Assembly (NCBI GenBank): GCA_016839515.1 | Contig: JAEOUE010000160.1 | Span: 1 to 35,424 of the forward strand | Reading direction: 5' to 3' | From: Candidatus Hodarchaeum mangrovi | Lineage (GTDB): Archaea; Asgardarchaeota; Heimdallarchaeia; Hodarchaeales; Hodarchaeaceae | Length of the DNA stretch: 35,424 nt | Shown: positions 4,467 to 22,564 of the stretch, one piece after another | Position numbering within the stretch: the first letter of the stretch is position 1 | Layout: every line of letters starts with the position of its first letter | Notes under the pieces: generated by a model | Databases searched by the model: none | What the model was told of the DNA's origin: nothing | Seen by the model: only the letters and a program-made list of their open reading frames with translations | Program-made: the position numbers and the translations under genes

Positions 4467-4931
4467 ATGCAACCTACAAGGGCTTTGATGGGTAATAGAA
4501 ATACAAGTTGGGTTTCAAATAATAAAGGAGTGGTTATTTCCTCCTTTTTTGGACTTTTATTCGTGATTATCAGAATATGGATTTTAATATTTGAGGCTTC
4601 GATAAGTTCTGCCATTGTGGTGTTAATGGAAACAGTTCAACTAGTCATTCTCTTTCTAGGTTTAATGATTTTTGTATACAACTTTGGTTATGTTGTGATA
4701 ATGCTCACAGTTGATGAAGGGTTAAATGAGGAGGAAAAAAATTTGTTAAAATGGATGATCAAACGTGCAATAATGATTTCTGTATTTTGGTTTGTCAGTG
4801 TTTTGAGTTTCTTAATTATTTTTCAAAGAGATCCTTTTTTACTTGCATCAGCCAATTGTTTCTTATTAGCCTCATTATTTTTCTTTATTAGAAAAGGTGA
4901 AAATCCTCTTGTTGAGGGTACCTTTGTATAA
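4467..4931 (+). CDS. Hypothetical membrane protein (about 4 TM helices)
   Basis: 154-aa ORF with four hydrophobic segments, ggtga SD-like motif upstream, ends 26 nt before the AAA-vWA gene. Confidence 0.65.
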   Translation: MQPTRALMGNRNTSWVSNNKGVVISSFFGLLFVIIRIWILIFEASISSAIVVLMETVQLVILFLGLMIFVYNFGYVVIMLTVDEGLNEEEKNLLKWMIKRAIMISVFWFVSVLSFLIIFQRDPFLLASANCFLLASLFFFIRKGENPLVEGTFV

Positions 4932-4957
4932 ATATAAAAAAAACTTGGATATTTGAA

Positions 4958-7795
4958 ATGAACTTATCTGACGGTCTTTCTGGAGTAGAAAAGTACGTTA
5001 CTACTTCCGAAACTTTCTCCCGACTCAAAGGTAATGAGCCGTTAAAAATTCTTCTTTTATTACTTGCAATTGACCCTTCAATAGGGGGAATGGTAATTAT
5101 GGGTCGTACTGGTACTGGAAAATCTTGTTTCTTAGAAGCCTTTAAAGATCTTCAAATTCCCTTGCATAGAGAGGATAAGAACTTTGCACCAATCATTGAT
5201 ATCCCTTCAAACATTTCTTTCGATGCACTTATTGATACATTAAATCTCCAGTTGAAATTCAGAGAAGGGATTTTCTCCAAAGTGCATAATGGATTTCTTA
5301 TTATAGATGATTTTCATTTACTTTCCGAATCTATTGCCAATACTATAATCAATGTATGGAAAACTAAAGAGAATATAGTACATAGATCTAATCTGTCCAT
5401 AAATCAATCGAGTAATTTTTGTTTACTGATTTCCATAAATAGTAGCTTTCACGAAATTTCAACCGCTGTATTAGATAAATTTGCATTTGTTTACGAAATG
5501 AAAGATTTTAATACACTTCAAGAACGTTTAGATATTGTAAATATGAATATAGAACCCATGAAAGATCCTAACTTGTATAAAGAAAAAAATAATCTATATA
5601 ATTCAATAAATCAAGCACGTAATATGTTATCTGAGGTTAATCTTCCTATATCAAATATTCAATATATTTCTACTATTTGTCAACAAAGTGAAATTCAAGG
5701 ACATAGAGCAGATATAGCTCTAGCTCGTGGTGCTATAGCATTAGCATGTTTACTAAATCGCAATGAAGTTGCACGAGAAGATATAGATTTTCTTGTTCCT
5801 TATGTACTTTCTCATAGATTACCAGAAAGAAAAGAGTCTTTTGAAAATGATATTATTAATATAAATAAAGGAGTATCTCATGATCTTAGAGAAAAAAAAG
5901 ATCCTAACTTTTCTTCATCACCAATGAGAGCAGAGTCTCCTAAGCGTATCCGAATTATTTTAGAATGGTTTGCTTCAATTTTTGGAATATGCATGACAGC
6001 TCTATTTTCATCAATTATCATTACTCAAATAATTACTAGACCTGATTTACTTATCTCCTTATTTAGTGCATTATCATTGTGGGGATTAGGTACCTTTCTT
6101 CTTTTAATCTACTTGAAGAAACGTAGAAAGTTAATGAAAGAATATAAAGTTAAAGAAGATGAAAATGTAGAACAAAAACCTGATTTAACCTCATTTTCCC
6201 ACGTGAAACATTTCCAAATTATTAAATCCGTAAAAGAGGAAAAAAAGCCGTCTAAAAAGGAAGTTATTCTTGATTTAGATGAGGATAGATCTAGAAAAGG
6301 CAAATTGTTACGATTTGTTGGTTTAAAGCGTCGACAGGGTTTAATCTCTTTCACGGAGAAACAACGTCTATATGCTAGCCTTTTTGGGGTAATAGTTCTT
6401 ATTATTAGTTTCTTCATTTTTTCATATTTTATTTCTATCCTCCCAGTAGAATTCTGGATTCAATTAATTATCTTCCTTGTTTCTTTATTTACCATTGGAT
6501 ATATTATACAATCTTTGAGAAAAAATTGGCGAGTTCATCGTGCAGCAGATATTGGTGCTTCAGAGGGGGAATCAAGTCGTAAATTAGATGATAAGGGAAT
6601 AGGAACACATATTTCGCCTATTGAAAGACTAGATAATGAATCCTTGAACCCTCAAGAGGACTATGGGACAAATTTACTCAATCGATTAGCTGAACTCGAC
6701 CTTTTACCTAAAAAAAATTTTCAAGGAGTTGAGTTAATAGTACCGCCTAATAATACCTCACTGAGATCAGTTAGAATTATTGCTGATGCTCTCCCAACTC
6801 TTAAAACTCGAATTGATTCTCGTAAAAGATCAAAAATGGGAAAGAGAGCAATAAGTGTAACCTCCTTACAATCAGGTCGAGTAATAGGATCTCACCCATT
6901 TATTCATTATCCTAAAAATATTCATCTATTAGCTACTCTAAGGAATACAATTATGCGTCAATATCGTGAGAGGGCATCATGCTCTACTAACCGTTTTATT
7001 ATTAAATTAGAAGACATTCAGGAAAAAACTTTTTGCACACGAGTTTCTGCTACCATTATTTTTGTTCTTGACCTCTCAGAATCAATAGTTAGTACAATAA
7101 ACGCTGTTTCAAGCTCTGTAAATTGGTTAAGTCGTCAAGCATATTTATATCGTGATCGTGTGGGTATAGTTGTCTTACAAGGAACCCAAGGAGTTATTAT
7201 ACAACCTCCGACTTCTAATTTAAACTTGGTGAAAAGAAAATTAAAAAATTTAAAGGCTTCAGGAGCTACTCCGCTCGCAGGTGGTCTTCAAAAAGCCGTT
7301 GAACTAATAAAACTAGATTTAATAAGGAATAAAAATGAATCAATACCTATGATTATTCTAATAACTGATGGAGCAACAAACATACCGTTATTAAAAGATC
7401 CATGGACAGGAGTAACTCGTAATACTCCATTAAAAGAATTAAAAGATAGAGCATATTCCATGGCAATTCTTGATTGTCTTGCAATTGCCCATCAAATTAA
7501 AAAAAGTAAAATTTCCCTCATAATATTTAATACTAATAGACGAGGAGAACTCATTTTCCGAAAAATTCCAAGAACTCAACAGGAATCAATAATTGATTTT
7601 CTTAATCAGTTAATAGTTGAAAGCACCCTATTTCGAGGTAGACGACATATGGATCTTTGGTCCTACACTCTGTTGCGTGCGATGCAGGAAATTACAAGAG
7701 GTTTCTTGTATCATCTTACTCGAATAGAGTCTGACTATAATTTAGAAACTTTAAGGATTGCACGAGCAGAGATTTTAGCGAATATAACTAATTAA
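4958..7795 (+). CDS. ChlD/BchD-like degenerate AAA+ plus vWA protein with four internal TM helices
   Basis: LLAIDPSIGG, Walker A GRTGTGKS, degenerate Walker B IIDDFHLL, GHRADI. The vWA domain has MIDAS DLSES, GATPLAGGL and ITDGATN. Two hydrophobic hairpins lie at about 5954-6116 and 6368-6518. Confidence 0.85.
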   Translation: MNLSDGLSGVEKYVTTSETFSRLKGNEPLKILLLLLAIDPSIGGMVIMGRTGTGKSCFLEAFKDLQIPLHREDKNFAPIIDIPSNISFDALIDTLNLQLKFREGIFSKVHNGFLIIDDFHLLSESIANTIINVWKTKENIVHRSNLSINQSSNFCLLISINSSFHEISTAVLDKFAFVYEMKDFNTLQERLDIVNMNIEPMKDPNLYKEKNNLYNSINQARNMLSEVNLPISNIQYISTICQQSEIQGHRADIALARGAIALACLLNRNEVAREDIDFLVPYVLSHRLPERKESFENDIININKGVSHDLREKKDPNFSSSPMRAESPKRIRIILEWFASIFGICMTALFSSIIITQIITRPDLLISLFSALSLWGLGTFLLLIYLKKRRKLMKEYKVKEDENVEQKPDLTSFSHVKHFQIIKSVKEEKKPSKKEVILDLDEDRSRKGKLLRFVGLKRRQGLISFTEKQRLYASLFGVIVLIISFFIFSYFISILPVEFWIQLIIFLVSLFTIGYIIQSLRKNWRVHRAADIGASEGESSRKLDDKGIGTHISPIERLDNESLNPQEDYGTNLLNRLAELDLLPKKNFQGVELIVPPNNTSLRSVRIIADALPTLKTRIDSRKRSKMGKRAISVTSLQSGRVIGSHPFIHYPKNIHLLATLRNTIMRQYRERASCSTNRFIIKLEDIQEKTFCTRVSATIIFVLDLSESIVSTINAVSSSVNWLSRQAYLYRDRVGIVVLQGTQGVIIQPPTSNLNLVKRKLKNLKASGATPLAGGLQKAVELIKLDLIRNKNESIPMIILITDGATNIPLLKDPWTGVTRNTPLKELKDRAYSMAILDCLAIAHQIKKSKISLIIFNTNRRGELIFRKIPRTQQESIIDFLNQLIVESTLFRGRRHMDLWSYTLLRAMQEITRGFLYHLTRIESDYNLETLRIARAEILANITN

Positions 7796-8677
7796 TTGTC
7801 GGTCGTGAGAAAATTGGAGATTGAACTACCTAAGAAAGTATTTCGACAAGGCGAAATGATAGATGTGTCAATTAATTTCTCCGCCATAAAAGCTCCACTT
7901 CAAGAGGGAACAATTGCTCTCATCGGAAAGGAAAAAACTGAATTTACCATTCAATCAATATTTGGTAAAACAGGTTTTCACCCTGCATGGAGTTTTATTT
8001 TACCAAGTCGTCATCAAAAAGAAGAAATAGAGTTTCTTAGACAAACCCATGAAATATCAACTCAAGATGCTCATTGGAATGAGAGTTTAGAAGTCCCTAG
8101 AAATGCTATTCCATCATATTATGGGGATAATGGGAAAGTATCGTATTTTCTTGAGATTCTATTAAATTTTGAAGATGGATCAAGTGAAAAAAAGACAGAA
8201 CAGATCATTATAGATCGGGATTACGAAATTGAAGAAAAAATAGAAATTCTTTCGATTCAAAGTGGGACATTAACAATATGCTATTCCACTCCCTTGCAGG
8301 TTGGACGAAAAAACCGATTAAATATTTCAACTCAGAATCTGACCTCCATTAATCCATTACGTATAATTCTAAAGAAAATTGAAACCTACACAGCAAATAG
8401 AATTACTATCAACGATGATAACCACAGTTTACCTATTTGTCAATTGACTTTCGATACAGACTTATCCGATACAGAAATTAATTTTGAGATTCCTTCTCGT
8501 TATCAACCGAGTTATGAAGGACTTCTGTCACGATGTGAATATTATGTTGAAATCTATTATTTATTAGGTAAGAAAGGAATAACATCTCGTCGTGAACGAT
8601 TAAAATTACTAACTAAGTTTCAAACCACTATAGAACATCCAGATCCTGGTCTTAAGTCAATTACGGGTGATAAATAA
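7796..8677 (+). CDS. Arrestin/Vps26/SpoOM-fold two-domain beta-sandwich protein
   Basis: N-terminal IELPKKVFRQGEMIDVSI pattern, then the arrestin-type motif twice: VPRNAIPSYYGDNGKVSYFLEI and IPSRYQPSYEGLLSRCEYYVEI. TTG start abuts the upstream stop. Confidence 0.7.
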   Translation: MSVVRKLEIELPKKVFRQGEMIDVSINFSAIKAPLQEGTIALIGKEKTEFTIQSIFGKTGFHPAWSFILPSRHQKEEIEFLRQTHEISTQDAHWNESLEVPRNAIPSYYGDNGKVSYFLEILLNFEDGSSEKKTEQIIIDRDYEIEEKIEILSIQSGTLTICYSTPLQVGRKNRLNISTQNLTSINPLRIILKKIETYTANRITINDDNHSLPICQLTFDTDLSDTEINFEIPSRYQPSYEGLLSRCEYYVEIYYLLGKKGITSRRERLKLLTKFQTTIEHPDPGLKSITGDK

Positions 8678-8680
8678 CTT

Positions 8681-9127
8681 ATGATAAGATCTATAGAACC
8701 TATCATATCAGATATTATAAAATGGAGTATAATATTAACTACGATTAGTTTTTTAGTTTCAATTGTAAGTATTTTTCTTTTTATTGATATAGAACAGGAA
8801 AACATTCCATACTTAACCTTGTTGTCGACAGCAATGAGTAACCTGAATTTTTTATTAGGCTCCCTTTCTTTAGCAACAGGATTAATAATTACCTTTTTTA
8901 AACCCCCTAATCGTCATTCAGAATCCTCTAGCGAGAAACCTAAGTTCATACCACAATATAAAAACGAAAGAATCAAAAAAAACAATATAAAATCAGTTAA
9001 ACCTTTTCCGAGCTCACCACCTCTATTTTCGGAACGAGAAAAAAAACTAATATTAACAGGCTTATTCACTATTGGAATTGCATTTGGTATTTGGATAATA
9101 TTCCTGTTTCTTTACCCTTTATACTAA
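8681..9127 (+). CDS. Hypothetical membrane protein (3 TM helices, basic/Pro-rich loop)
   Basis: Three hydrophobic segments, ggtga upstream, starts 3 nt after the previous stop. Confidence 0.65.
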   Translation: MIRSIEPIISDIIKWSIILTTISFLVSIVSIFLFIDIEQENIPYLTLLSTAMSNLNFLLGSLSLATGLIITFFKPPNRHSESSSEKPKFIPQYKNERIKKNNIKSVKPFPSSPPLFSEREKKLILTGLFTIGIAFGIWIIFLFLYPLY

Positions 9128-9187
9128 TCAGCAAATTATATCATTGATGATAAAGGATTTTTTCATGTTACTGATTGAATTCTTCCC

Positions 9188-9970
9188 TTAGATCCCATTC
9201 ATAGCAGCTAGAACAAGCATAACTGGGATTGGAGATAGAATTAAAGCAATAACGGTAGCATATAACGATTGAAATGCGTCATAGCTTCGTATAAATGTGA
9301 ATGTAATAATACCTATCTTCAGAAGAAAGAGAATTAATAGAAAATTATGCAGGATCACCTCCAAATAAGAAAGTGCCTCATAATAGATTTGATCATGATT
9401 AAATTTAACATAATATGGGGAAATTTCATTTAATTGTGAATCTAAAATGTTGATAATCATGTTTTCATCTAGATGAACTTCTACCCACGAATGCCATTTT
9501 CCGATAACCACATAGCTATCATATCCTCGTCGAGTCAATAAGGAAGCTGCAACTAATGCAATTCCATCACAATCATCACCACGGGCTAAGACATCCGAAA
9601 CAGAAGCACGATGATCCAACGTTATATAATTTGCTATATCATCTGTAAATGGAATTATTCTATCAATGAAAGCTTCTACCGCTTTGATTTCTATAATAAA
9701 GTTATTTTTGGTCTTTAATAATAAGGAAATAGATTCATAATTTGCATTAAGATATGCTTCAAATTTTTGGTCTAATTCAATAATTTTTGGGTTATCAGGT
9801 TGAATTGTTTCAGTTAAAGCAAAACGATTCATCATTTGATCAGGCCATACTAGAGGGTTTAAGGAAAATCCTGTTAGGAGATATGTTAAAGTCAAGAGTG
9901 CAGCAATAGCTAATTCCTTATTAGTAAAAGTTAAGCGGGCCATCTCTAATTTCTCAAAGTTCAACCACAA
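9188..9970 (-). CDS. Membrane-anchored transglutaminase-like cysteine protease domain protein
   Basis: GDDCDGIALVAASLL (Cys), WHSWVEV (His), ILD (Asp); one N-terminal and two C-terminal TM segments; the start may be ATG 9943. Confidence 0.7.
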   Translation of the reverse strand: MWLNFEKLEMARLTFTNKELAIAALLTLTYLLTGFSLNPLVWPDQMMNRFALTETIQPDNPKIIELDQKFEAYLNANYESISLLLKTKNNFIIEIKAVEAFIDRIIPFTDDIANYITLDHRASVSDVLARGDDCDGIALVAASLLTRRGYDSYVVIGKWHSWVEVHLDENMIINILDSQLNEISPYYVKFNHDQIYYEALSYLEVILHNFLLILFLLKIGIITFTFIRSYDAFQSLYATVIALILSPIPVMLVLAAMNGI

Positions 9971-10107
9971 ATCTAAAATTCTTCGTAAGGATTCTCGTAA
10001 TTACAGAAACTTTTCTTCTTTATATAATCATTTATTTTAGTGCAAAACCTTAATCAGCCAAATTTATGTATAACATTTAAAAAAATTCCAGATAGACTTC
10101 TAAGCCA

Positions 10108-12141
10108 TTAGTTTTCTTTTTTCATTTTCGTTTTATCATTCTGGTAGGGAATTTTCTCTAATGCAGCTCGTTTTGATGCAATTACTCTTTCACGGGAACG
10201 TAATTCGATTTTTTTCACCATCTCTTTATCTAGCAAATCACGAGTTGGTTGGTTTAAGCTTAATACTTGCATTTTTCCTCTATAATAAACAGTAAGAACT
10301 AGAAAAAAAAGCATACCTACAAAAAAGGTTGGATTCATATCAGTATATTTTCCTTTATCTTTAATGTGATTTAAACTGGTATCAAAGCTAAGAAGTGATG
10401 TGTGAAGTTTTCTAACAAGTGAGTAAGCTTCTCTGTAGTTCATTTCTTGATATTTCGTTAAAACTGCAAAATAAGAAGCATTATATGAATTAAATAGATT
10501 TTGTAAGTTTTTAGTATATACTTTATCTTTAGCTGAAACTATAGCTTGATTGATAATTGAACGGGAAGCTTTGAGTAGAATATCTATTTGGCCCCGTTGA
10601 ATGTTATCAATAGAAAATATACTGAACTGGGAGGAATGCGTATAATAAGACATTACATCGTCAATAAAATTACCCACAGTCCCAAATTGAAAAGGATGCA
10701 TTAATCCGATTTGATGTCCCAGCTCATGGATTAGAGTCTGCGATAATCCATGAAATGGTTGAGGATTTGATCGATTGTCACCATAAGTATATTTATAATC
10801 ATGGCTAATGATCGTCAATGGAGAATCAAGTTCATCCCGTAATGCAATGCCTAAAAGACTAGGCTCCAATTTTGCTTTGTCAGCAATACCAAATAAGGCG
10901 TCATCAAAAATGAAAGCAAACGTTTTAAAGTGAACCGTAAAAAATTGAAAGTAAATTTCTTCAAGAAACGTCCCAGCATTCGAATAAAGTTCCTCATAAA
11001 TAGGGATAAGATCAACTGCATACTTTCGAGTAGATTGGTTATTAAATTCTCCCCAAGGAACAATGGAGGACTGTATAATGGAATAAAGACTTGGAACGGT
11101 GTTTAATGCTTGAAATTTTACATCGATGACACATTTTATCCAAGGATAAACAGTTTCAAAGGAATTTAAAATGAAAGTTTCATTAACTGTCCATCGAAGA
11201 TCTTCAGGAGAAAACCCAGTCACATTTGTTAAGACTAGAATTTCAAAATAAAATTGTACTCCAGTACTTAAATCACCAACTGGTGCGAGTGGCGAATATA
11301 CATAATCTTGAACCCAAAGATTTCTTTCGACTTCATAAATCCATTGTGCAATAAAATCTGAGAACCTTTGGAATCCATAGGGGGTCTGGAGGTTGTACAA
11401 CTGCTCAAATTCTTGAAGGGTACTATTTGAACCCTCATTTTGTAAATAATAGGAATCTGAGGTGAGATCTAAGTAATAAAGGCGATCTTGAGAACCATAC
11501 CCTGTCATAAAACTCCTACGAATAGAAGTATGCGCGTCTGGGTCGATATATGTTTCATTATACCAGTGAGTTGTGTATTCTCCATCATCTAGCATTGTAA
11601 GATTCGAAAGAAATAAGGTATATCCTGGGATTGGTTTTAATCCGTAATAAAATTCATAATTATCTGCAAGCCATGAAATTGTTTTTGTCGCATTAATAAA
11701 TCGTCCCTTATCACTGGTTCCATCAGAATGATTGATAGTATCAGGAATCGCTGTATAGTTTATAAAATTGAAAAATTCATTATCAAAAGAGTTTGAAGCT
11801 AGTTCATAATAGTGATTTATAAAGAATGATTTATCAGTGTAATCTTGTTGAAAAAAGCTTATTACGCTTCTCTCAATCTGAGAAGGTTGTCCTTCTATTA
11901 TAGGATTAATTAGACTGTTCATTATTTGAGTATTAAAACCAGTAAATATAATTCGGGAAAACAACTCTGATCTTGTTGGGAGATTTGGAGTATCATAGAA
12001 CGACGCAGCGCTCGTTGGAATCGTATTAGGTACTATTATCAAACAAACAATTAAAAAAAAGATTAGGTTATTCTTCATCAAGAAAGATCTTTTGATTAGC
12101 AATATTTTCTCACCTATTTTCATAATTATGAATTTATTCAA
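10108..12141 (-). CDS. Secreted, membrane-anchored zinc metalloprotease (metzincin)
   Basis: Signal peptide ending TSA-A, HELGHQIGLMH (HExxHxxGxxH), Met-turn DVMSY, C-terminal TM followed by a basic tail; probable start ATG 12078. Confidence 0.8.
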   Translation of the reverse strand: MNKFIIMKIGEKILLIKRSFLMKNNLIFFLIVCLIIVPNTIPTSAASFYDTPNLPTRSELFSRIIFTGFNTQIMNSLINPIIEGQPSQIERSVISFFQQDYTDKSFFINHYYELASNSFDNEFFNFINYTAIPDTINHSDGTSDKGRFINATKTISWLADNYEFYYGLKPIPGYTLFLSNLTMLDDGEYTTHWYNETYIDPDAHTSIRRSFMTGYGSQDRLYYLDLTSDSYYLQNEGSNSTLQEFEQLYNLQTPYGFQRFSDFIAQWIYEVERNLWVQDYVYSPLAPVGDLSTGVQFYFEILVLTNVTGFSPEDLRWTVNETFILNSFETVYPWIKCVIDVKFQALNTVPSLYSIIQSSIVPWGEFNNQSTRKYAVDLIPIYEELYSNAGTFLEEIYFQFFTVHFKTFAFIFDDALFGIADKAKLEPSLLGIALRDELDSPLTIISHDYKYTYGDNRSNPQPFHGLSQTLIHELGHQIGLMHPFQFGTVGNFIDDVMSYYTHSSQFSIFSIDNIQRGQIDILLKASRSIINQAIVSAKDKVYTKNLQNLFNSYNASYFAVLTKYQEMNYREAYSLVRKLHTSLLSFDTSLNHIKDKGKYTDMNPTFFVGMLFFLVLTVYYRGKMQVLSLNQPTRDLLDKEMVKKIELRSRERVIASKRAALEKIPYQNDKTKMKKEN

Positions 12142-12233
12142 TCCCTCTTAAAGTTCAAGAGTGTGGTAATTTTATTGTCAAATATTTAAATTGTCTTAGA
12201 TATTCTCCAAATTCAGTACCTGAAATTAAAGTT

Positions 12234-12260
12234 AAAAGAAAACAATGAAAAAGAAAAAAT
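12234..12260 (-). terminator. Oligo-T archaeal terminator after oppF
   Basis: The minus strand has consecutive T-runs immediately after the stop at 12265. Confidence 0.5.
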
Positions 12261-12264
12261 TAGA

Positions 12265-13263
12265 TTATTTATAAGCATAATCTGACTCTTCAAGTGGAAA
12301 ATGACAAGCCACAAAGTGATTTGGTGATATTTCATCTAGTGGAGGCTCTTCCTTTGAACAGATTGATTTCGCGTACATACAACGATTACTAAATCGACAG
12401 CCGGAAGGTGGAAATATAGGAGACGGTACATCACCCCTTAAAACTAATCGATTCATTTTTCGTTGGAGGTCTAAACTTGGTACTGCTGAAATTAATGCTT
12501 CAGTATAAGGGTGAGCTGGATTACGGAATAATTCCTCGGTTGCAGAGCTCTCAACAATTTTTCCGACATACATTACGTTAACAAATCGTGTAATATGTCT
12601 TACTACACCTAAATCGTGAGCTACAACGATATAGGTAAGATTCAGTTCGTTTTGTAGGTCTTGGAGAAGGTTCAGAATTTGTGCTTGAATCGATACATCA
12701 AGAGCGGAAACAGGCTCATCTGCGACTATAAGTCTTGGGTTGAGTGCAAGAGCTCTAGCAACGCCAATACGTTGACGTTGACCTCCTGAAAACTCATGTG
12801 GAAAGCGATAGTAATGATCAGGAGCTAAGCCAACTGTTTTAAGTAGGTTAAAAACAATCTCAGATCTTTCCGAAGCGTTTGCGACACCATGAACAACAAG
12901 AGGTTCACCAATAATGTCACCTACCTTCATTCTAGGATCTAGAGACGCATAAGGATCCTGGAAGATAATTTGCATATCTCGCCTAAGTTGACGCATTTTT
13001 CGGCCTTTTGAACGAGTGATATCTACTCCATCAAAGAGAATTTGACCTCCAGTAGGATCATATAACCGTAAAATGCACCTTGCTGTCGTGGTTTTTCCGC
13101 ACCCTGATTCTCCAACAAGACCAACAGTGCCACCTCGTGGAACTGAGAAGCTCACATCATCAACTGCTCGGAGCGTTAAAGTATCAGAAGAGAAAAGTCC
13201 TCTTGTAACTTCAAAGTACATCTTTAAATTTTTGACTTCAATAATATTATCTGTTTTACTCAT
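12265..13263 (-). CDS. oppF: Oligopeptide/dipeptide ABC transporter ATP-binding protein
   Basis: GESGCGKTT, FSGGQRQR, VADEPVSALD, HPYT, C-terminal Cys cluster; start set at ATG 13263, preceded by aggagttga. Confidence 0.93.
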   Translation of the reverse strand: MSKTDNIIEVKNLKMYFEVTRGLFSSDTLTLRAVDDVSFSVPRGGTVGLVGESGCGKTTTARCILRLYDPTGGQILFDGVDITRSKGRKMRQLRRDMQIIFQDPYASLDPRMKVGDIIGEPLVVHGVANASERSEIVFNLLKTVGLAPDHYYRFPHEFSGGQRQRIGVARALALNPRLIVADEPVSALDVSIQAQILNLLQDLQNELNLTYIVVAHDLGVVRHITRFVNVMYVGKIVESSATEELFRNPAHPYTEALISAVPSLDLQRKMNRLVLRGDVPSPIFPPSGCRFSNRCMYAKSICSKEEPPLDEISPNHFVACHFPLEESDYAYK

Positions 13264-13283
13264 AATATCAACTCCTGAATACT

Positions 13284-14258
13284 TTAGGTATATAGATGAC
13301 AAGCAATACGATGACCTGGTTCTACTTCTAATTCTTCAGGAAAGCTCTCACGGCATACAGGCATTGCCTTTGAGCAGCGGGGGTGGAATGGACAACCTGA
13401 AGGAGGATTAATTAAATCAGGAACTTCTCCCGGGATTGGGGCAAGGCGATCCTTTTTCTGACTGATTTTAGGAATTGACTCATGAAGACCTTTTGTATAG
13501 GGATGTAGAGGATTTTCAAAGATATGTTCAACTTTACCAAACTCAGCAATATGTCCTGCATACATTACTGCAACTTTATTCGCTAATTCAACAACTAATC
13601 CCAAGTTATGAGTTATTAGAATCAGGGAAGTTTGAATTTCTTCCATTAAATTAGCCATAATTTCCAGAATTTGAGCCTGAATAGTAACATCAAGGGCAGT
13701 AGTAGGTTCATCTGCGATTAAAAGGCTCGGATTACAGGAAAGTGCCATGGCAATACCCACTCTTTGGCGCATTCCTCCACTCAATTGATGAGGATAATTT
13801 TCAAGACGATCTTCTGGATTTGGAAGCCCTACCATACTAAAGTATTCAACTACCTTTTGAAGAATTTCCTGTTTTGATAAAGACTGATGTAAACGAATTG
13901 CTTCTGCTACTTGCTCACCAACAGTTAGTACTGGATTAAGAGAGGTCATAGGATCTTGAAAAATCATTGAAATCCGATTTCCTCTGATTTTTCTCATATC
14001 ACGCATTGGTAGCTGCAACAAATCGATCCCATCGAACCAGACTTCACCACTTTCGATACGACCAGGAGGTATCGGAATCAGTCTCATCATTGAGAGTGCG
14101 GAGACACTTTTACCGCATCCAGATTCCCCCACGAGTCCAAGACTTTCTCCTCGATTTATTCGATAAGAAACCCCTTCTACAGCTTTTACAACCCCTTTCT
14201 TTGTATAAAAATGAGTCCGAAGATCTCGGACGTCTAATAATACTCCACCAGTACTCAT
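13284..14258 (-). CDS. oppD: Oligopeptide/dipeptide ABC transporter ATP-binding protein
   Basis: [38 protein letters not shown]. Confidence 0.95.
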
Positions 14259-14260
14259 GG

Positions 14261-15232
14261 TTACACATCCCTTGTCCTTGGATCTAATACATCTCGTAAC
14301 CAGTCTCCAAGAAGATTAAAGCCTAATACTACAATGAATATAGCTAATCCAGGAAAGAACATCGGCCATGGGTGATCAAAGAAGGTATAACGTGCACCAT
14401 TCATATCACCTCCCCAGTCTGGTTGATTTGGTCGTGCACCAAGGCCAATAAAACTGAGTCCAGCGGTACTCATGATGGCACCACCAATACCCATGGTTGC
14501 ATATACTAGAATAATTGGGAAAACGTTGGGTAGTACATGTTTTACGATAATTCGTGCTTCACTAGATCCTGTAGCTCGTGCTGCATCAATAAAATCCATT
14601 TCACGAACCGCTAGTACGGATCCACGTAATATTCGGGCATAACCAGGGATTCCCATAAAACCAACGAAGAACATTGCAATTAGAAGGGTGTATTTTCCTG
14701 CTGGATTCCAAGGCTGGTCCGAGAGGGCTGCTACTATAATTAATAGCATAAAGAAACTAGGAATTGACATCCAAGCATCTACAATTCGCATTAAAATATT
14801 ATCAACACTACCACCAAGATAACCAGAAAGCGATCCAATTAGGATACCCCCAAATAGGCCAACTGATATCGCCAATGTCCCTGCTAGAACAGCACTTCGG
14901 GCTCCATAAAGGATACGAGAAAATATATCTTGGCCAGCCCAATCAGTTCCCATCAAGTAAGGAAATCCAGTGGTAGGGGTATCTCCGGTAATTAAGAATG
15001 GATCTTGAAAGGAAGGCATACCTACAGTATAATCATCTTCAGTTGGGTGATATGGAGCTATTACATCAGCAAAAATTGCAATTGAAAAGAATCCAAGGAT
15101 TATGATGAATCCGATTAACGCTGTCCAGTTATGGATAAGGGAGTGAAAATAGGCCCGTAGTCTTGCTCGAAATCGTCGTTCACGTTTGACTTGAGCGATA
15201 AGCTCTTCTTGAGTCATAATACTCATACCCAT
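14261..15232 (-). CDS. oppC: Oligopeptide/dipeptide ABC transporter permease
   Basis: MGTDWAGQDIFSRILYGAR, EAA-like FIDAARATG, HVLPN, GDWLRDVLDPR; SD aggagtga. Confidence 0.93.
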   Translation of the reverse strand: MGMSIMTQEELIAQVKRERRFRARLRAYFHSLIHNWTALIGFIIILGFFSIAIFADVIAPYHPTEDDYTVGMPSFQDPFLITGDTPTTGFPYLMGTDWAGQDIFSRILYGARSAVLAGTLAISVGLFGGILIGSLSGYLGGSVDNILMRIVDAWMSIPSFFMLLIIVAALSDQPWNPAGKYTLLIAMFFVGFMGIPGYARILRGSVLAVREMDFIDAARATGSSEARIIVKHVLPNVFPIILVYATMGIGGAIMSTAGLSFIGLGARPNQPDWGGDMNGARYTFFDHPWPMFFPGLAIFIVVLGFNLLGDWLRDVLDPRTRDV

Positions 15233-15247
15233 GATAAATCACTCCTT

Positions 15248-16255
15248 TTAACTGTACCGAATACGTGGATCTAAATAAGCATACGCAATATCCACCACAA
15301 GGTTCATCAAGATTAACAAAGTAGAACTAAATAGTACTACGCCCATAATTACTGGATAATTACGTGTAAGTAGTGCACGATAACCATAACGTCCCATACC
15401 AGGCCATGAAAAAATAGTTTCCATAATTACAGCTCCACCAAACAAACCAGCAAGATCTAGTCCAATAATAGTTACTACTGGAATTAGGGCGTTTTTCAGA
15501 GCATGTTTGTAGATAACCACTTTTTCAGCTAAACCTTTAGATCGTGCAGTGGTAATATAATCTTGTCGAATAACCTCTAACATACTCGACCGAGTAATTC
15601 GGGCATAAAATCCTGCTGACGCAATTCCCATTGCCACTCCTGGAATAATTAAGCGTCCAATGGGGGATGCATTATCACGCCAACCTGGAGTAATGAATCC
15701 TCCATGTAAAGGAAATAAGTCAATGGCTATGAATTGAATTAGAATAAATGCTAACCAATATCCCGGTGTAGAATAAAGAGTTAATGTAACAAAAACTAAA
15801 AACCGATCAGTAAATTGATTGTGTTTGACAGCTGAAATAATCCCTACAATTATTCCTGTTGAACAGGCAAATAATAGTGCTGTTGTTGTTAACTGTAATG
15901 TTGCAGGGAATAAATGTAACATCTCTTCAACTATTGGTTGGTTCGTCTCCCAATTTCTACCAAAATCACCTGTTGCGAGATGGGCTAACCAGATTAAGTA
16001 TTGTATCCAAACTGGATGGTTTAATCCCAGTTCATCTCTTAATCGTTCATATTCTGCTTCCATGGCCATTAAATCTTCTGCAGTAATATCTTTTTGCCCT
16101 CTCATCATCTCGGGGTTGATTGCTCCACCAAAAATTAGTGTAGCAGGATCCCCTACAGCAAGGGCTGCGGAAGAATAGGTAATCATTGTGATTACCAATA
16201 AAAGCACAGGGGCAAGAATTAACCGTTTGACAACGTATCCTCTAAGACCTGCCAT
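15248..16255 (-). CDS. oppB: Oligopeptide/dipeptide ABC transporter permease
   Basis: GDFGR, RITRSSMLEV, DYITTARSKGL, HALKNA, ETIFSWPGMG, LDPRIRY. Confidence 0.95.
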   Translation of the reverse strand: MAGLRGYVVKRLILAPVLLLVITMITYSSAALAVGDPATLIFGGAINPEMMRGQKDITAEDLMAMEAEYERLRDELGLNHPVWIQYLIWLAHLATGDFGRNWETNQPIVEEMLHLFPATLQLTTTALLFACSTGIIVGIISAVKHNQFTDRFLVFVTLTLYSTPGYWLAFILIQFIAIDLFPLHGGFITPGWRDNASPIGRLIIPGVAMGIASAGFYARITRSSMLEVIRQDYITTARSKGLAEKVVIYKHALKNALIPVVTIIGLDLAGLFGGAVIMETIFSWPGMGRYGYRALLTRNYPVIMGVVLFSSTLLILMNLVVDIAYAYLDPRIRYS

Positions 16256-16281
16256 TGTTTTGCACCTTTTACCAATATTAC

Positions 16282-16330
16282 GGCAAATATCTGTGAAACA
16301 GAGAATTGCCAGAATAGAAATCCTTATATA
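16282..16330 (-). promoter_or_regulatory. Putative oppB promoter: TATA box TATATAAG (16330-16323) with an inverted repeat over the expected start site
   Basis: The same TATATAAG octamer occurs upstream of oppA; the inverted repeat ggcaa..tctgt-gaa-acaga..ttgcc spans 16282-16310. Confidence 0.45.
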
Positions 16331-16602
16331 TCTTTATAAAGGAAATTAATTCTTCACTTCCTAGTTATATATTTTAATTATATGTATCAGAAAAATGATA
16401 TATCAGAAATAAGAATTTCATCCCACAAATGAATATTATATGAGAAAAAATTAAATATTGTTAATTTATTTCGTAAATTATTTCTTATAGGTTGGATAAA
16501 TAAGATTTCAAGTTGAATTATAAAATAAATGCTATTTTATAGAAATGAACTAATTACCTAGATTGAAGAAGTCCTGAGAAATTTGGAATTATAAATGAAG
16601 AA

Positions 16603-17012
16603 TTAAACAAAAAATATCTCTCTAATCCAAGAATTTAAAATAACTAATTGCTCATCTTTTAGGACTGCTCCATTTCTGTGAATACTTGTAAAATTCTCCC
16701 AAACCTTGGATGATTGGGTGATTAGGTTAATAAATTTTCCTAACTTTTTTATTGGATGGTAAGATAGGCCTTAAAAACATAACAGAATAGGAGTGGACTT
16801 TTTTCTTTGAATATTAAATTATATTCTTTATATTTTATACGCTCAATTGAACCTCCACTTATAGAGGCAAATGCGTTCTTCATTATAGAATTAACGGCTG
16901 AAATAATCCCACTTAATAGCTGTTCTTCAAATTTCTGTTCATTAAATCTTTTTGAATAAACGCATAAACCATTCTCATGCATTACTAGAAGCAGAATGGA
17001 TTCTTCTTCTTT
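16603..17012 (-). pseudogene. 5'-truncated, frameshifted fragment of a longin-like C-terminal domain of the kind found on Asgard proteins
   Basis: The frame reads KEEESILLLVMHENGLCVYSKRF...LLSGIISAV...SIERIKYKEY...FCYVFK. After a 1-nt shift near 16770 it continues (G)LSYHPIKKLGKFINLITQSSKVWENF...LNSWIREIFFV* to a stop at 16603. Confidence 0.7.
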
Positions 17013-18729
17013 AACTGAAATAGGGATTAATTCTAAAATATTTTATAGTAATATGTTATTTGCGAAAATCATAGGTCAAGAAATACCTGATCTTTATCAA
17101 CGATTAAGTCTAGTTAGAAGTACTAGTTTGGCTGGTGAATGGATTTTCGCTTCAACAGCTTTTCCCCATAAGCAGAAAGCTCATCAATATTACGGAAAGA
17201 GAAGATTCACTCCTAACGTATCTGTACCAATGTTATCGACTTCTATTTCTTATGAGGATCTTTTGAAGTGTCAATCTTTTGTTCCAGAATTCCTGAATCT
17301 CTGTATTAAATCTATTAAAAAATACAACGCCCCAATTATTGGTATTTCAACCTTTTTTCAGCAAACCTGTGCAGCTATTTCCATTGCTAAAGAAATAAAA
17401 AGAAATTTTCCCAAAAGTTTAATCATTCTTGGAGGAGGGAACTGCTTAGTTCCCATGAATTATGCACTTGATTCCTTAACACGAAATACAGTAGATTACA
17501 TTTTTAGCGGGGAAGCTGAGAGGGAATTCAAAGATTTCTGTCTGAATTATCTGAAAGAAGGGGTTTTACCTTCAAAACATCTTATTGAATGTGCACCGAT
17601 TCCAGATCTTGATCTATTACCGATTCCAGATTATGATGAATATTATGGACAATTATATGAATTTGGATTAGAATCAAATATTCGAAGACTTGGATTTGAG
17701 TCTTCTCGAGGATGCTGGTGGGGTGAAAAATCAAACTGTCTATTTTGTGGGTTGAATGGAATAGATATCCATTATCGCCAAAAATCTCTTAAAAGAATAT
17801 GTCATGAAATAGAATTCTTAAGTAAGAAATATAATGTAACATTATTGCAAGCAACGGATAATATCATGCCCAAAGATCTACCCGAAGCTTTAATGCAAAA
17901 ATTTAGCCCTCCTTCAACTCTCAATAGCATTTATTACGAAGTAAGGCCAACTCTTTCGTTTGAAGAATTATATTATTGTAAAAAAGCAGGAATAAAAACA
18001 CTTCAACCTGGAATGGAATCATTAACTAATCATTTATTATTCCTATTATCAAAAGGATTGACAGCTTCAGGAAACATCCGATTTTTAAGAGACTGCCGAA
18101 ATTTAGGGATTCGACTTGATTGGAATCTGTTGTATGGGATTCCTGGGGAAGAGGTAAAAGATTATGAGGAAATGTTACGGATTATTCCATTTATAAGTCA
18201 CCTAGCACCTCCAGATTTCATTGGACCAGTCAATATTCAACGATATAGTCCATTATATATGAATCCGAAAAAATATGGAATTTCCAAAATCATACCTCAT
18301 CCCAACTACTTGGAAATATATCCAGATGAAACTGACTTCTTTCAATTTGCGTTATATTTTGAAAGTAATTTCCAAACTGTATTTACTGGAGCATTAGAAC
18401 GTGAATTCCTAGCTCAAATCTCCTTCTGGCGTGAGAAATGGAAACAAAATCCTCCAACACTTCGAGCTATTAAATTAAATGAAGAAACATATTTGATTGA
18501 TGATACTCGATCTGAAGTTAATCAGGGTATAAGATTAATTTCTGCGAAATATATTAAGATATTAAACAATTTTAGAAATCCAGTAAAAAGATCTCAATTC
18601 GACATAGATGAAATACAGCTTCTTAAATGGGGTTATTTACTTAAAATAGGAGAATATGTTGTCTCTCTAGTATGTGAACCAATGCAAGTCCTAAACTATT
18701 ATGAGAAATTTAATAAAAGAATTCAGTAA
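16996..18729 (+). CDS. RiPP-maturation B12-dependent radical SAM methyltransferase-like protein (PoyC/TIGR03975-like), probably N-terminally truncated
   Basis: GEWIF, IGISTFFQQ, ILGGGNC, FSGEAE, LPIPDYDEY, ESSRGCWWGEKSNCLFCGLNG (CX7CX2C), TDNI, LQPGMES, WNLLYGIPGE, RYSP. Confidence 0.85.
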   Translation: MDSSSLTEIGINSKIFYSNMLFAKIIGQEIPDLYQRLSLVRSTSLAGEWIFASTAFPHKQKAHQYYGKRRFTPNVSVPMLSTSISYEDLLKCQSFVPEFLNLCIKSIKKYNAPIIGISTFFQQTCAAISIAKEIKRNFPKSLIILGGGNCLVPMNYALDSLTRNTVDYIFSGEAEREFKDFCLNYLKEGVLPSKHLIECAPIPDLDLLPIPDYDEYYGQLYEFGLESNIRRLGFESSRGCWWGEKSNCLFCGLNGIDIHYRQKSLKRICHEIEFLSKKYNVTLLQATDNIMPKDLPEALMQKFSPPSTLNSIYYEVRPTLSFEELYYCKKAGIKTLQPGMESLTNHLLFLLSKGLTASGNIRFLRDCRNLGIRLDWNLLYGIPGEEVKDYEEMLRIIPFISHLAPPDFIGPVNIQRYSPLYMNPKKYGISKIIPHPNYLEIYPDETDFFQFALYFESNFQTVFTGALEREFLAQISFWREKWKQNPPTLRAIKLNEETYLIDDTRSEVNQGIRLISAKYIKILNNFRNPVKRSQFDIDEIQLLKWGYLLKIGEYVVSLVCEPMQVLNYYEKFNKRIQ

Positions 18730-18750
18730 TAAAACGAAATATATCTTAGT

Positions 18751-18781
18751 ATTTTTTTAAAAAAAAGAAAAAAAGGGGGGG
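18751..18781 (-). terminator. Oligo-T terminator after oppA (may be bidirectional)
   Basis: The minus strand has a C-run then TTTTTTTCTTTTTTTT right after the TAA; the plus strand has a T7 run facing the rSAM gene. Confidence 0.6.
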
Positions 18782-18782
18782 T

Positions 18783-20714: not shown

Positions 20715-20715
20715 A

Positions 20716-20870
20716 ACACAACGATCTCTATCTGTACTCTCGATAACTGAATCTAAGTTTTATTTCTATTTTACTAACTAAGAAGTAATTAAATGATTTT
20801 TACTGGTAATAAGGGAGAGTACACCTATAAGATCTGTGCGACACTTCGCTACTCTTATTATTCTTATATA
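20716..20870 (-). promoter_or_regulatory. oppA promoter (TATATAAG at 20870-20863) and a long self-complementary 5' leader
   Basis: Minus-strand arm GCACA-GATCT-TAT-AGG-TGTACTCTC (20839-20815) is complementary to GAGAGTACA-G-ATA-G-AGATC-GT-TGTGT (20741-20716). Confidence 0.5.
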
Positions 20871-21000
20871 GTTATCCTCACTCAGCATAACTATCTTTAA
20901 ATTCACCCTCTTATTCTGGATTTACTCTTTCAAATATCAAAGGTAGTACTTTCGATAGGATTTTATTCTGGTTAAGAATTAAATAAAACTTGATTTTCTA

Positions 21001-21492
21001 ATGATATTCTCTCAAAATCGAAAGATACTGCTTGATATTATTCTTTTAGGTCTTCTTTATGCCATTATTTACACTTGTTTAGTATATTTTGTTTATCCGA
21101 TTGAAATAGGATCTGGAGAAAATGTTATTGCTCGTGCTTTAGGTTCTGCTTTTTATTTTGGGGCCTTTAGTGGATTTTTTACTGGGCTTATAGGTGGGAT
21201 ATGGGTCAATCGCTTAGAGTTTAAGTCATCAATTACCATTGGTATTCTTATTGGTCTGACAAGTGCAATTTTAGGTTCAATTATTTTTCCATTTATTGGG
21301 TCTTGGTTAAGAATATTTTATTTTGGCGAGAACCCATCGGATTTCATTGTTGAAGTTTACTTTTTAATTAACTATTCAATTGTTGGGGTTGCTCCTGGGC
21401 TATTCGTAGGTTTGATTGCCGGGGTAATTGGAGGTATTTTCACAGGGGATATTGGAACAGGAGTTGGGCCACATAAAGAAGCTGATTCTTAA
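21001..21492 (+). CDS. Glycine-rich (GxxxG / glycine-zipper) membrane protein
   Basis: Four hydrophobic segments with repeated GxxxG, e.g. GAFSGFFTGLIGG and GLFVGLIAGVIGG. Confidence 0.65.
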   Translation: MIFSQNRKILLDIILLGLLYAIIYTCLVYFVYPIEIGSGENVIARALGSAFYFGAFSGFFTGLIGGIWVNRLEFKSSITIGILIGLTSAILGSIIFPFIGSWLRIFYFGENPSDFIVEVYFLINYSIVGVAPGLFVGLIAGVIGGIFTGDIGTGVGPHKEADS

Positions 21493-21493
21493 G

Positions 21494-22564
21494 TTACTTT
21501 TTCTTTGAATCCATAATACGTCCTAAGACTTGATTTATTTCAAGTTTTGATGGGGGTTCTCGCATACCTCCTTCTCTAGTTCTATGAAGAAGAGTTAAAT
21601 AAGCACATTCAAGAATATCGTCAATAGTTACTTCAGTTCGGCCATCATACGCGGCTTTTGCTCGGCTTCCTCTCGTAAGAACGATGTCAGATCGAAATCC
21701 ATCTACTTTAAGTGCCATACAAAGTGATACGATAATTTCTTTTCTATATTGAGGGATTTGAACATTTGTAAGGTTTACCTTAGCCTTACTAATTCTTTCT
21801 TTAAGTCGTTGATCATGATTTTGATAATCTTCTATCCACATTCCCCAATCTTTACTTTCCTCCTTTAAATTAAGTTCAACGATTTTCATTCGTTCATTAA
21901 TGTCTTGAATGTTTCCTGCTTGGGCAAAAAGGCTTAATCTGTCAAGTAATTGAGGGCGTAATTCCCCTTCTTCAGGATTCATAGTTCCAACAAGGATAAA
22001 ATTACTTGGGTGTCGAATTGAGATATTCTCTCGTTCAACAATGTTCCAACCTGATGCAGCACAATCTAGGATAGTATCGACTAAATGATCTGGTAAGAGA
22101 TTGATCTCATCTATATAAAGGATTTCTTGGTTCGCGTTAGCTAGAACTCCTGGAGAAAGGGCTTCGATTCCTGAGCCAATAATTTTTTCTATGTCTAGCG
22201 AACCTATAACACGATCCTCAGTAGCACCAAGAGGTAAAGTGATAATTTCCATTGTTTTCTTTTTCTGGGGAATACTTTCATAATCTTTTTCCGTTCTTTG
22301 TAAACAGCTCTCGCACATTTCTTTGGGCTTGTCTGGATTACATTTAAAAGGACAATCGGAGATTATTGTTATATTTGGTAGGATACTGGTTAATGATCGT
22401 ACGAGTGTACTTTTCCCTGTACCTTTTGGTCCTGATATCAGCACTCCTCCTATTTTGGGGTCGATAAGAGCTAGAATCAGGGCTAATTTTGCTTCTTTTA
22501 ACCCAACAAGTGAGGAAAATGGAATTACGGGCCTTTTGTCTTCTTTCATTTTTTTTTCGCCCAT
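21494..22564 (-). CDS. ChlI/BchI-like chelatase-family AAA+ ATPase
   Basis: PFSSLVG, IDPKIGGVL, GPKGTGKS, CPFKC...CESC insert, ATEDRVIGSLD, YIDEINLL, TMNPEEGELRPQLLDR. Confidence 0.92.
   Translation of the reverse strand: MGEKKMKEDKRPVIPFSSLVGLKEAKLALILALIDPKIGGVLISGPKGTGKSTLVRSLTSILPNITIISDCPFKCNPDKPKEMCESCLQRTEKDYESIPQKKKTMEIITLPLGATEDRVIGSLDIEKIIGSGIEALSPGVLANANQEILYIDEINLLPDHLVDTILDCAASGWNIVERENISIRHPSNFILVGTMNPEEGELRPQLLDRLSLFAQAGNIQDINERMKIVELNLKEESKDWGMWIEDYQNHDQRLKERISKAKVNLTNVQIPQYRKEIIVSLCMALKVDGFRSDIVLTRGSRAKAAYDGRTEVTIDDILECAYLTLLHRTREGGMREPPSKLEINQVLGRIMDSKKK

Follow-up and report, generated by a model that had tools for sequence, protein, structure and literature searches.

The stretch of DNA analysed here, called the window in what follows, comprises 35,424 nucleotides of contig JAEOUE010000160.1 from Candidatus Hodarchaeum mangrovi, an Asgard archaeon of the order Hodarchaeales. 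It contains a gene for a ChlD-like protein with four predicted transmembrane (TM) helices between its AAA+ module and its von Willebrand factor A (vWA) domain, and we refer to this protein as TM-ChlD. The gene is the second in a run of four co-oriented genes, and the window also encodes a standalone ChlI-like ATPase (Table 1).

Table 1. TM-ChlD, its parts and the genes discussed with it, in positions of the window (aa, amino acids)
Feature	Position	Strand	Remarks
ChlD-like protein (TM-ChlD): AAA+ module, four predicted TM helices, finger, vWA domain with MIDAS (the metal ion-dependent adhesion site)	4958..7795	+	945 aa, one open frame
ChlI/ChlD-type AAA+ module	5015..5827	+	aa 20-290; best fold matches BchI/ChlI
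TM1	5954..6037	+	aa 333-360; hydropathy, AlphaFold2
TM2, followed by KKRRK	6047..6115	+	aa 364-386; hydropathy, AlphaFold2
Charged loop between the hairpins, predicted cytoplasmic	6116..6361	+	aa 387-468
TM3	6362..6442	+	aa 469-495; hydropathy, AlphaFold2
TM4, followed by RKNWR	6446..6517	+	aa 497-520; hydropathy, AlphaFold2
Predicted finger region before the vWA domain	6830..7033	+	aa 625-692; AlphaFold2 model; putative likeness to the NorD/CobT finger (available text of PMC9976466)
vWA domain, MIDAS D705-x-S707-x-S709, T771, D804	7034..7795	+	Pfam match, alignment
Standalone ChlI-like ATPase, putative motor partner	21494..22564	-	356 aa, all catalytic motifs intact
154-aa 4-TM protein, candidate non-obligatory partner	4467..4931	+	26 bp upstream of the TM-ChlD gene
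Arrestin-fold protein, candidate non-obligatory partner	7796..8677	+	293 aa, 0 bp downstream of the TM-ChlD gene
148-aa 3-TM protein, last of the four-gene run	8681..9127	+	TM helices predicted

TM-ChlD has the domain order of ChlD/BchD. BchI/ChlI proteins are the top matches to its N-terminal module in both sequence and fold searches, and its C-terminal vWA domain, with an intact MIDAS, is preceded by a finger region. Two other properties of ChlD/BchD are missing, namely a soluble, Pro-rich and acidic linker and a score above the equivalog cut-offs. The Pfam matches are AAA_lid_2, Mg_chelatase (weak) and VWA_2, and the NCBIfam matches are TIGR02442, TIGR02031 and TIGR02030, all of them far below cut-off (284 against 779.45 for TIGR02442 and 262 against 499.55 for TIGR02031); a control protein encoded next to CobN clears both of the latter cut-offs (842 and 519, respectively). 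PF26791, which is displayed on many relatives, was absent from the matches in our Pfam search.

The initial annotation stated that the helices replace the soluble linker of a ChlD-like subunit. Four predicted TM segments are indeed present where canonical ChlD has a soluble linker, but they sit within a linker of 345 residues in which soluble stretches of about 40 and 100 residues flank them, and in the nearest soluble relatives the linker is long and basic (about 190 residues) and not short and rich in Pro and acidic residues. In the four-helix homologues the linker averages 349 residues, with 3% Pro and 10% Asp plus Glu, compared with about 106 residues, 8% and 18% in canonical ChlD.

These homologues come from a search with residues 300-945, which returned 16 proteins, 14 of them full-length; seven of the 16 are labelled Hodarchaeales, Hodarchaeota or Heimdallarchaeota. 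The genus is represented by 22 metagenome-assembled genomes (MAGs) that are 70-99% complete, and the same gene is present in six of them besides the genome studied here. These orthologues, together with a contig from an independent study (run X11, study P6) that covers positions 4987-6974 across the junctions with six differing letters and no gap, rule out a chimera or mis-assembly, so the junctions first described from the window alone are real. No one piece of this independent sequence reaches across the full 4.8 kb.

The prediction of four TM helices is also borne out. Our calls are based on hydropathy (Kyte-Doolittle scale, 19-residue windows), charge bias, conservation and AlphaFold2 models. 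Hydropathy peaks at 2.1, 2.0, 2.6 and 2.3 in residues 333-360, 364-386, 469-495 and 497-520, respectively, and only two of 2000 shuffles of the linker gave four such segments. At a threshold of 1.6, which was used for the homologue counts, four segments are found in all 14 full-length homologues, and the turn prolines P362 and P496 are invariant. AlphaFold2 predicts helical hairpins at residues 328-360/362-395 and 467-494/497-533 with a per-residue confidence (pLDDT) of about 70, the predicted template modelling score (pTM) of the whole model being 0.37. The basic patches KKRRK (387-391) and RKNWR (521-525) directly follow the two hairpins, and the four outer flanks carry on average 3.6, 4.8, 4.2 and 4.6 Lys and Arg residues, compared with 0.3 and 0.2 in the two turns. 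The even number of helices and the positive-inside flanks support the earlier proposal that the AAA and vWA domains lie on the same side of the membrane, and the protein is probably held there by its four helices.

A fifth TM segment at residues 28-50 was rejected, since in the alignment with ChlI this stretch falls on the opening helix and strand of the AAA module. The TM segments have no profile likeness to each other or to the hairpin of Bathyarchaeia relatives, so that neither a duplication of hairpin 1 into hairpin 2 (hhalign probability 1%) nor homology to the Bathyarchaeia hairpin (17%) is supported, and the ESM Atlas contained no usable match for the TM region. The segments are the least conserved folded parts of the protein, with mean identities of 27-42% compared with 50% in the AAA core and 81% in the vWA domain (residues 693-812), its most conserved part. 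The second half of the loop between the hairpins, at about 53%, is on a par with the AAA module.

The AAA module was initially annotated as looking inactive. Walker B reads DD in 14 of 14 full-length homologues and the Arg finger position is occupied by Lys in 13 of them; compared with the ChlI of the window, the helix-2 insert is seven residues shorter and the NPEEGxLRP motif and the Arg finger are lost. The module is also on a long branch in the tree. Walker A (GRTGTGKS) is intact, with both its Lys (K55) and the sensor II Arg (R250) invariant in all 14. A Walker B DD by itself would not prove inactivity; DnaA, for example, carries one. In Synechocystis ChlD, according to the available text of PMC3789969, chelatase activity is undetectable in a Walker A mutant, a sensor II mutant is strongly impaired and mutants in Walker B and the Arg finger lose less; the authors term the site allosteric. 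Because the residues kept and lost in TM-ChlD follow this mutagenesis order, the module, judged from its motifs, is probably non-hydrolysing yet nucleotide-binding. The lack of hydrolysis is further supported by the combination of these losses and by the length of the AAA branch. The loss of the Walker B Glu and the Arg finger therefore stands, but with K55 and R250 invariant the word inactive is too strong, and the module is probably not dead.

The MIDAS was correctly described as intact, since D705, S707, S709, T771 and D804 are kept in 14 of 14 full-length homologues; the D-S-S and D residues are invariant across 55 clade sequences. In an AlphaFold2 model from the 55-row alignment (pLDDT 83.7, pTM 0.79) the finger has a beta-hairpin at residues 631-647, followed by one long strand (688-705) whose end is the MIDAS residue D705. 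A fold search with the vWA end returned generic vWA domains only, BatB among them, and the finger is thus assigned by description and not by superposition. The available texts report that the fingers of NorD (PMC9976466) and CobT (bioRxiv 10.64898/2026.10.09.757910; bioRxiv 10.64898/2026.07.21.739949) insert into the AAA pore, and the modelled finger of TM-ChlD may be of the same kind.

The presumed partner, the ChlI of the window, has intact Walker A, Walker B, Arg finger and sensor II motifs, as do its six orthologues. Standalone ChlI is present in exactly the seven of 22 genus genomes that have the four-helix gene, and both genes bound a common block at the hut locus; the suggested connection of TM-ChlD with its ChlI paralogue thus held up. 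The block, of 18 kb, lies between hutU and hutH (window 4467-22564), with the 4-TM and TM-ChlD genes at one end and chlI at the other, and it carries two genes for peptidase-like proteins with a membrane anchor as well as a peptide ABC transporter. It is whole in six genus genomes and missing from the hut locus elsewhere examined, except for two genes in G012. Among the 15 genomes without the block, hutU is followed by hutH in 12, other genes lie between them in two and a contig ends there in one. In G012 (83% complete) only the TM-ChlD gene and chlI are left between hutU and hutH, tail to tail.

TM-ChlD is not alone in its architecture: forms with two, four and eight helices occur widely among TACK and Asgard archaea. 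We searched 1.84 billion representatives with a profile (best 150 matches), and together with a second search (best 120) this gave 283 two-domain proteins. Of these, 171 score high against the vWA profile of the clade and have no linker helix in 62 cases, two in 83, four in 17, eight in one and an odd number in eight. These counts include near-duplicates; after dereplication at 75% the clade counts become 19 without helices, 44 with two, 13 with four, one with eight and three odd. The remaining two-domain proteins lack a linker helix in 111 of 112 cases. The helix count is even in 102 of the 110 TM-bearing proteins among the 283 (threshold 1.6), and in the eight odd ones a further, weaker hydrophobic stretch can be seen by eye. 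Many two-helix relatives connect their helices by a loop of 14 residues on average that contains little Lys and Arg (0.9 versus 3.8-4.0). Clade labels include Bathyarchaeia, Methanomethylicia, Thorarchaeota, Baldrarchaeia and Hodarchaeota, and trees support a clade apart from canonical ChlD. A pattern scan of GTDB returned mostly canonical proteins, with linker helices at three of 78 loci.

A single origin of all anchors was rejected by the approximately unbiased test (p 6e-5; at least four changes), which was run under LG+G4 on 35 of 110 dereplicated rows, with long branches present and after a FastTree tree was seen. Because the TM segments are conserved less than any other folded part, have no such profile likeness, come in counts of two, four and eight and do not form one clade, we infer that they act mainly as a generic anchor that keeps the motor in the plane of its client.

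Some relatives of other shapes were also seen. The sister group of the four-helix family (P0029/P0024) includes a 1060-residue protein with eight helices (Hodarchaeota label) and a 926-residue protein with probably four. Two Thermoplasmata loci (L096:2389-12622 and L102:7044-9038) encode fusions in which AAA modules of the ChlI type follow TM/coiled-coil or zinc-ribbon regions, as well as a protein in the reverse order vWA-AAA-AAA.

Three gene layouts are seen, and soluble motor subunits appear to come from a separate chlI or from a poly-A frameshift. In the first layout there are two genes, as in the Hodarchaeales and in 13 of the 17 TM-bearing Bathyarchaeia genomes (101 searched), with chlI directly upstream in Bathyarchaeia; the remaining TM-bearing Bathyarchaeia comprise three cases cut by contig ends and one single gene. 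One Bathyarchaeia genome (G085:C1, loci L168-L171) has three TM-chlD genes, two after a full chlI and one after a 118-residue remnant, and an additional lone chlI.

The second layout is that of family f11 (Thorarchaeota label), in which one gene has a poly-A run just 5' of the hairpin. A match is present in 44 of 48 f11 genomes, and the AAA frame extends for about 400-480 residues in 40 of the 43 listed. In the 28 split loci examined, a run of A8-A11 is always at the same place, and a shift of -1 is needed in 26 and +1 in two; three in-frame alleles carry A10, and frame 0 gives a soluble ChlI-like product. The -1, +1 and in-frame alleles coexist (L230-L237, L289-L308, L219-L221) and no constant downstream hairpin was seen at these loci, which fits transcriptional slippage. 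Poly-A recoding of chlD has been published, with measured values of 10-63% in the available text of PMC3711429. The poly-A frameshift site between the AAA and vWA domains that defines fs-chlD is thus present in the f11 relatives and absent from the gene of the window, which has no A run over eight; none of the seven four-helix genes has a run of nine or more. In the Hodarchaeales genus of the window, a soluble paralogue of about 800 residues carries A10-A11 runs at two separate places in its linker and is split in four of seven genomes (L044, L047, L048 and L050, in frame in L045, L046 and L049). It occurs together with the four-helix form only in G010.

In the third layout there is one intact gene and no separate chlI was found, for example in 14 of 14 genomes of family f17. 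Departures of Walker B from DE are found in the two-gene layout (seven of seven Hodarchaeales and seven of 18 Bathyarchaeia genes), in none of 11 f11 genes, in one of 17 single-gene TM forms and in none of 24 standalone ChlI proteins.

A chelatase large subunit, a point that the initial annotation did not raise, was not found in most of these genomes. CobN/ChlH (PF02514 above cut-off) was found in none of the 22 genus genomes, though it was matched in five control genomes, and each of five genomes checked has a single gene of the tetrapyrrole-methylase family. CobN was likewise found in none of the 48 f11, 14 f17 and 17 TM-bearing Bathyarchaeia genomes. Only three TM genomes have CobN (G043, G151 and G187), and in each a separate short ChlD adjoins it. 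Among 201 Asgard genomes, 143 have a ChlI/ChlD-type match and 28 have CobN, and orphan ChlI/ChlD proteins are therefore common in this group. A soluble orphan ChlD-like gene (about 735 residues) in family f14 (L238-L242) follows a JAB/MPN gene and precedes an ATP-grasp gene; all 45 f14 genomes have a match, and 12 of the 45 have CobN. With an intact ChlI and no ChlH/CobN found in the genome, TM-ChlD is outside the class I chelatases by membership tests, and its client is presumably not a tetrapyrrole chelatase subunit.

We hold, with moderate confidence, that TM-ChlD is a membrane-anchored adaptor of the ChlD/CobT/NorD type, belonging to a ChlI-driven AAA+/vWA motor that would remodel a membrane client and would not be a chelatase. 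In its favour are the topology, the helix parity, the tie to ChlI and the CobN searches set out above, and also a motif pattern that matches the mutagenesis of ChlD (available text of PMC3789969). The two hairpins would span the membrane and leave the AAA and vWA domains in the cytoplasm. The ChlI of the window would build the ATP-hydrolysing ring, onto which the AAA module of TM-ChlD would dock with bound nucleotide that it does not hydrolyse. As in NorQD and CobST, the finger would enter the ChlI pore and relay the power stroke to the MIDAS face. The MIDAS would grip its client, located in the membrane or close to it, by an acidic residue. The client could then be assembled, disassembled or loaded with a cofactor while the helices hold the motor in its plane. 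The steps that go beyond sequence features are modelled on NorQD, CobST and ChlID.

Several observations weigh against such an anchored adaptor. Helix parity is doubtful at two Bathyarchaeia loci, where the first helix is below a Kyte-Doolittle value of 1.3, and at a Thermoproteota locus where a third stretch is hydrophobic. The clade also has soluble members (62 of 171), likewise without CobN, and its basic job can therefore do without the anchor. Amphipathic helices in soluble linkers are not clearly above shuffles (four of 19 with z>1.64), and an amphipathic membrane-binding helix in these members was rejected on that ground. No clade-wide neighbour gene was found among 1061 open reading frames at about 90 loci, and the client may therefore differ between lineages. 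At about 53%, the conservation of the juxtamembrane residues 434-468 and 521-555 exceeds what a mere tether would require. In the window chlI is 13.7 kb from the TM-ChlD gene, on the opposite strand and in a different operon. Finally, the genomes are MAGs, and kin are not independent in the counts.

Lineage-specific neighbours do exist, namely an AIR-synthase-like gene in f11, a longin-like gene (by eye) in f17 and a gene for a 255-residue protein in some Bathyarchaeia. The f17 protein (L204-L214), of 220 residues and longin/roadblock-like by eye, is encoded directly downstream of the single-gene two-helix form at 10 loci and had no Pfam or NCBIfam match.

The neighbours of TM-ChlD itself suggest another explanation, in which the Hodarchaeales helices are the core of a membrane complex with the 154-residue 4-TM, arrestin-fold and 148-residue 3-TM proteins. 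Such a complex would remodel or sort membrane cargo, with the arrestin as cargo adaptor and an acidic loop as the MIDAS ligand. The four genes are spaced by 26, 0 and 3 bp, and the three neighbours flank the TM-ChlD gene in six of its seven genomes. Within the genus, the arrestin and 4-TM genes each occur only alongside it (six of 22 genomes each; one weak extra match, E 1.6e-4). The 4-TM protein has an invariant acidic loop, DEGLN[ED]E, between its TM2 and TM3 that is predicted to be cytoplasmic, the juxtamembrane segments of TM-ChlD are conserved, and the available text of PMC9976466 proposes that the NorD MIDAS binds acidic residues of the membrane protein NorB. However, G012 keeps an intact TM-ChlD gene and chlI on a contig that shows their adjacency, and none of the three neighbours was found in that genome. 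There are also no such neighbours near the two-helix forms of other lineages, and the 18-kb block at the hutU-hutH site moves as a unit, so the co-occurrence may be passive. A complex prediction with residues 325-945, Mg and the 4-TM protein gave a score of 0.05, which counts neither way. The 154-residue protein matched only unnamed ESM Atlas clusters below 0.9, and the arrestin profile had no match among PDB sequences. We consider this complex doubtful and treat the three proteins as candidates and not as required parts.

A broader proposal, which we regard as unlikely, would place TM-ChlD in an undescribed TACK/Asgard family of membrane-embedded, chelatase-derived AAA+/vWA machines with repeated gain and loss of anchors and three routes of motor-subunit supply. 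The Hodarchaeales four-helix form, with the arrestin-fold adaptor and the two small membrane proteins, would be an ATP-driven device for remodelling or sorting membrane proteins. If true, this would give orphan ChlI/ChlD proteins, and also an archaeal arrestin, their first function.

In a more restricted form of the anchored-adaptor reading, TM-ChlD would be a chaperone that inserts a metal or cofactor into a membrane metalloenzyme, as NorQ/NorD are for nitric oxide reductase. The ancestry of the motor among class I chelatases and the retention of the finger-MIDAS module agree with this, and the CobSTN preprint (available text of bioRxiv 10.64898/2026.07.21.739949) draws the same motor-adaptor-effector parallel. 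However, neither respiratory nor metalloenzyme genes are retained as neighbours from one lineage to the next, and the HExxH metalloprotease-like and peptide ABC genes of the Hodarchaeales block are missing in G012, so we find this version quite improbable.

It is less probable still that the hairpins do not cross the membrane and are instead re-entrant, monotopic or a soluble, oligomerising helical bundle. The even count and the very short turns would also fit re-entrant hairpins, TM1 and TM2 are of modest hydropathy (about 2.0) with several Ser, Thr and Gly residues, and the AlphaFold2 confidence is only about 70. However, each segment is 23-28 residues long with a core free of charge, the positive-inside bias is strong, and the short, Lys/Arg-poor loop of the two-helix relatives described above looks like an outer loop. 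A class I chelatase or dechelatase subunit whose large subunit is too divergent to detect is extremely improbable, for although the best family and fold matches are to chelatase subunits, the scores, the PF02514 searches and the single tetrapyrrole-methylase-family genes given above all stand against it.

Other genes of the window can be mentioned briefly. Positions 9188-9970 (minus strand) encode a 260-residue membrane protein with conserved DDCDG and WH.W.E motifs, which is transglutaminase/cysteine-peptidase-like by eye and whose orthologue has a weak CEP76 peptidase match. Positions 10108-12141 (minus strand) encode a secreted, C-terminally anchored protein of 677 residues with the motif HELGHQIGLMH, which is metzincin-like (weak serralysin match). 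A B12-binding-like/radical SAM gene (16996-18729, plus strand) lies between oppB and a solute-binding protein gene and is not at that site in orthologous loci. Genes for a small GTPase (1513-2217), a roadblock/LC7 protein (32552-33022) and a coiled-coil membrane protein (31683-32402) are typical of Asgard archaea.

If TM-ChlD is the anchored adaptor that we favour, the chelatase motor would be a general remodelling engine and more than a part of tetrapyrrole enzymes. The conserved anchor points to where the client lies, and a substrate-trap pull-down would be straightforward. The Hodarchaeales are a proposed close relative of eukaryotes, and a membrane-bound AAA+ machine would thus be added to the inventory of a lineage near eukaryote origin.

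Among known systems, ChlD/BchD with ChlI/BchI, the motor of class I Mg-chelatase, is the closest, along with the single-chain putative cobaltochelatase TIGR02442. The order ChlI-type AAA+, linker, finger and vWA is shared, as are the intact MIDAS, the pairing with a soluble ChlI and, as we infer here, a non-hydrolysing, nucleotide-binding AAA module that retains the Walker A Lys and the sensor II Arg. TM-ChlD differs in its four predicted TM helices within the 345-residue linker, in the loss of the Walker B Glu, the Arg finger and part of the helix-2 insert, in the absence of ChlH/CobN from the genomes searched and in scores below the NCBIfam cut-offs. Membrane-anchored AAA+ or vWA proteins are also known. 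Archaeal LonB is a membrane-anchored AAA+ protein with helices inside its AAA domain plus a protease domain, and proteins of the BatA/BatB type are membrane-anchored vWA proteins without an AAA module; neither is known to have helices between AAA and vWA domains.

Orphan and frameshifted chlD/chlI genes (PMC3711429, PMC9227772) likewise combine chlD and chlI without chlH or cobN. The kind of poly-A site described in PMC3711429 is found in f11 and the soluble Hodarchaeales relatives, but the slippery run is absent here, where a separate chlI exists. The available texts of these two papers make no mention of membrane helices or of Asgard or Bathyarchaeia forms, and according to that of PMC9227772, what chlI plus chlD do in the absence of a large subunit is unstudied; the available text of PMC5898192 treats other archaeal vWA/ATPase modules. 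Our literature search found no description of a TM-bearing ChlD, although subscription journals were mostly outside its coverage and supplements or the Chelatase DB could hold one.

CobS/CobT, NorQ/NorD, CbbQ/CbbO and RavA/ViaA also have a finger joined to the MIDAS by one strand (available text of PMC9976466), as predicted here for TM-ChlD, and the protein on which NorQD acts is likewise a membrane protein. According to the same text NorQ and NorD themselves are soluble, whereas TM-ChlD is predicted to be membrane-integral and has its own AAA module. Unlike in these MoxR-type pairs, both AAA modules of the Hodarchaeales system match ChlI/BchI far better than MoxR. By analogy with these systems, it is reasonably probable that TM-ChlD works as an adaptor like ChlD, CobT and NorD.

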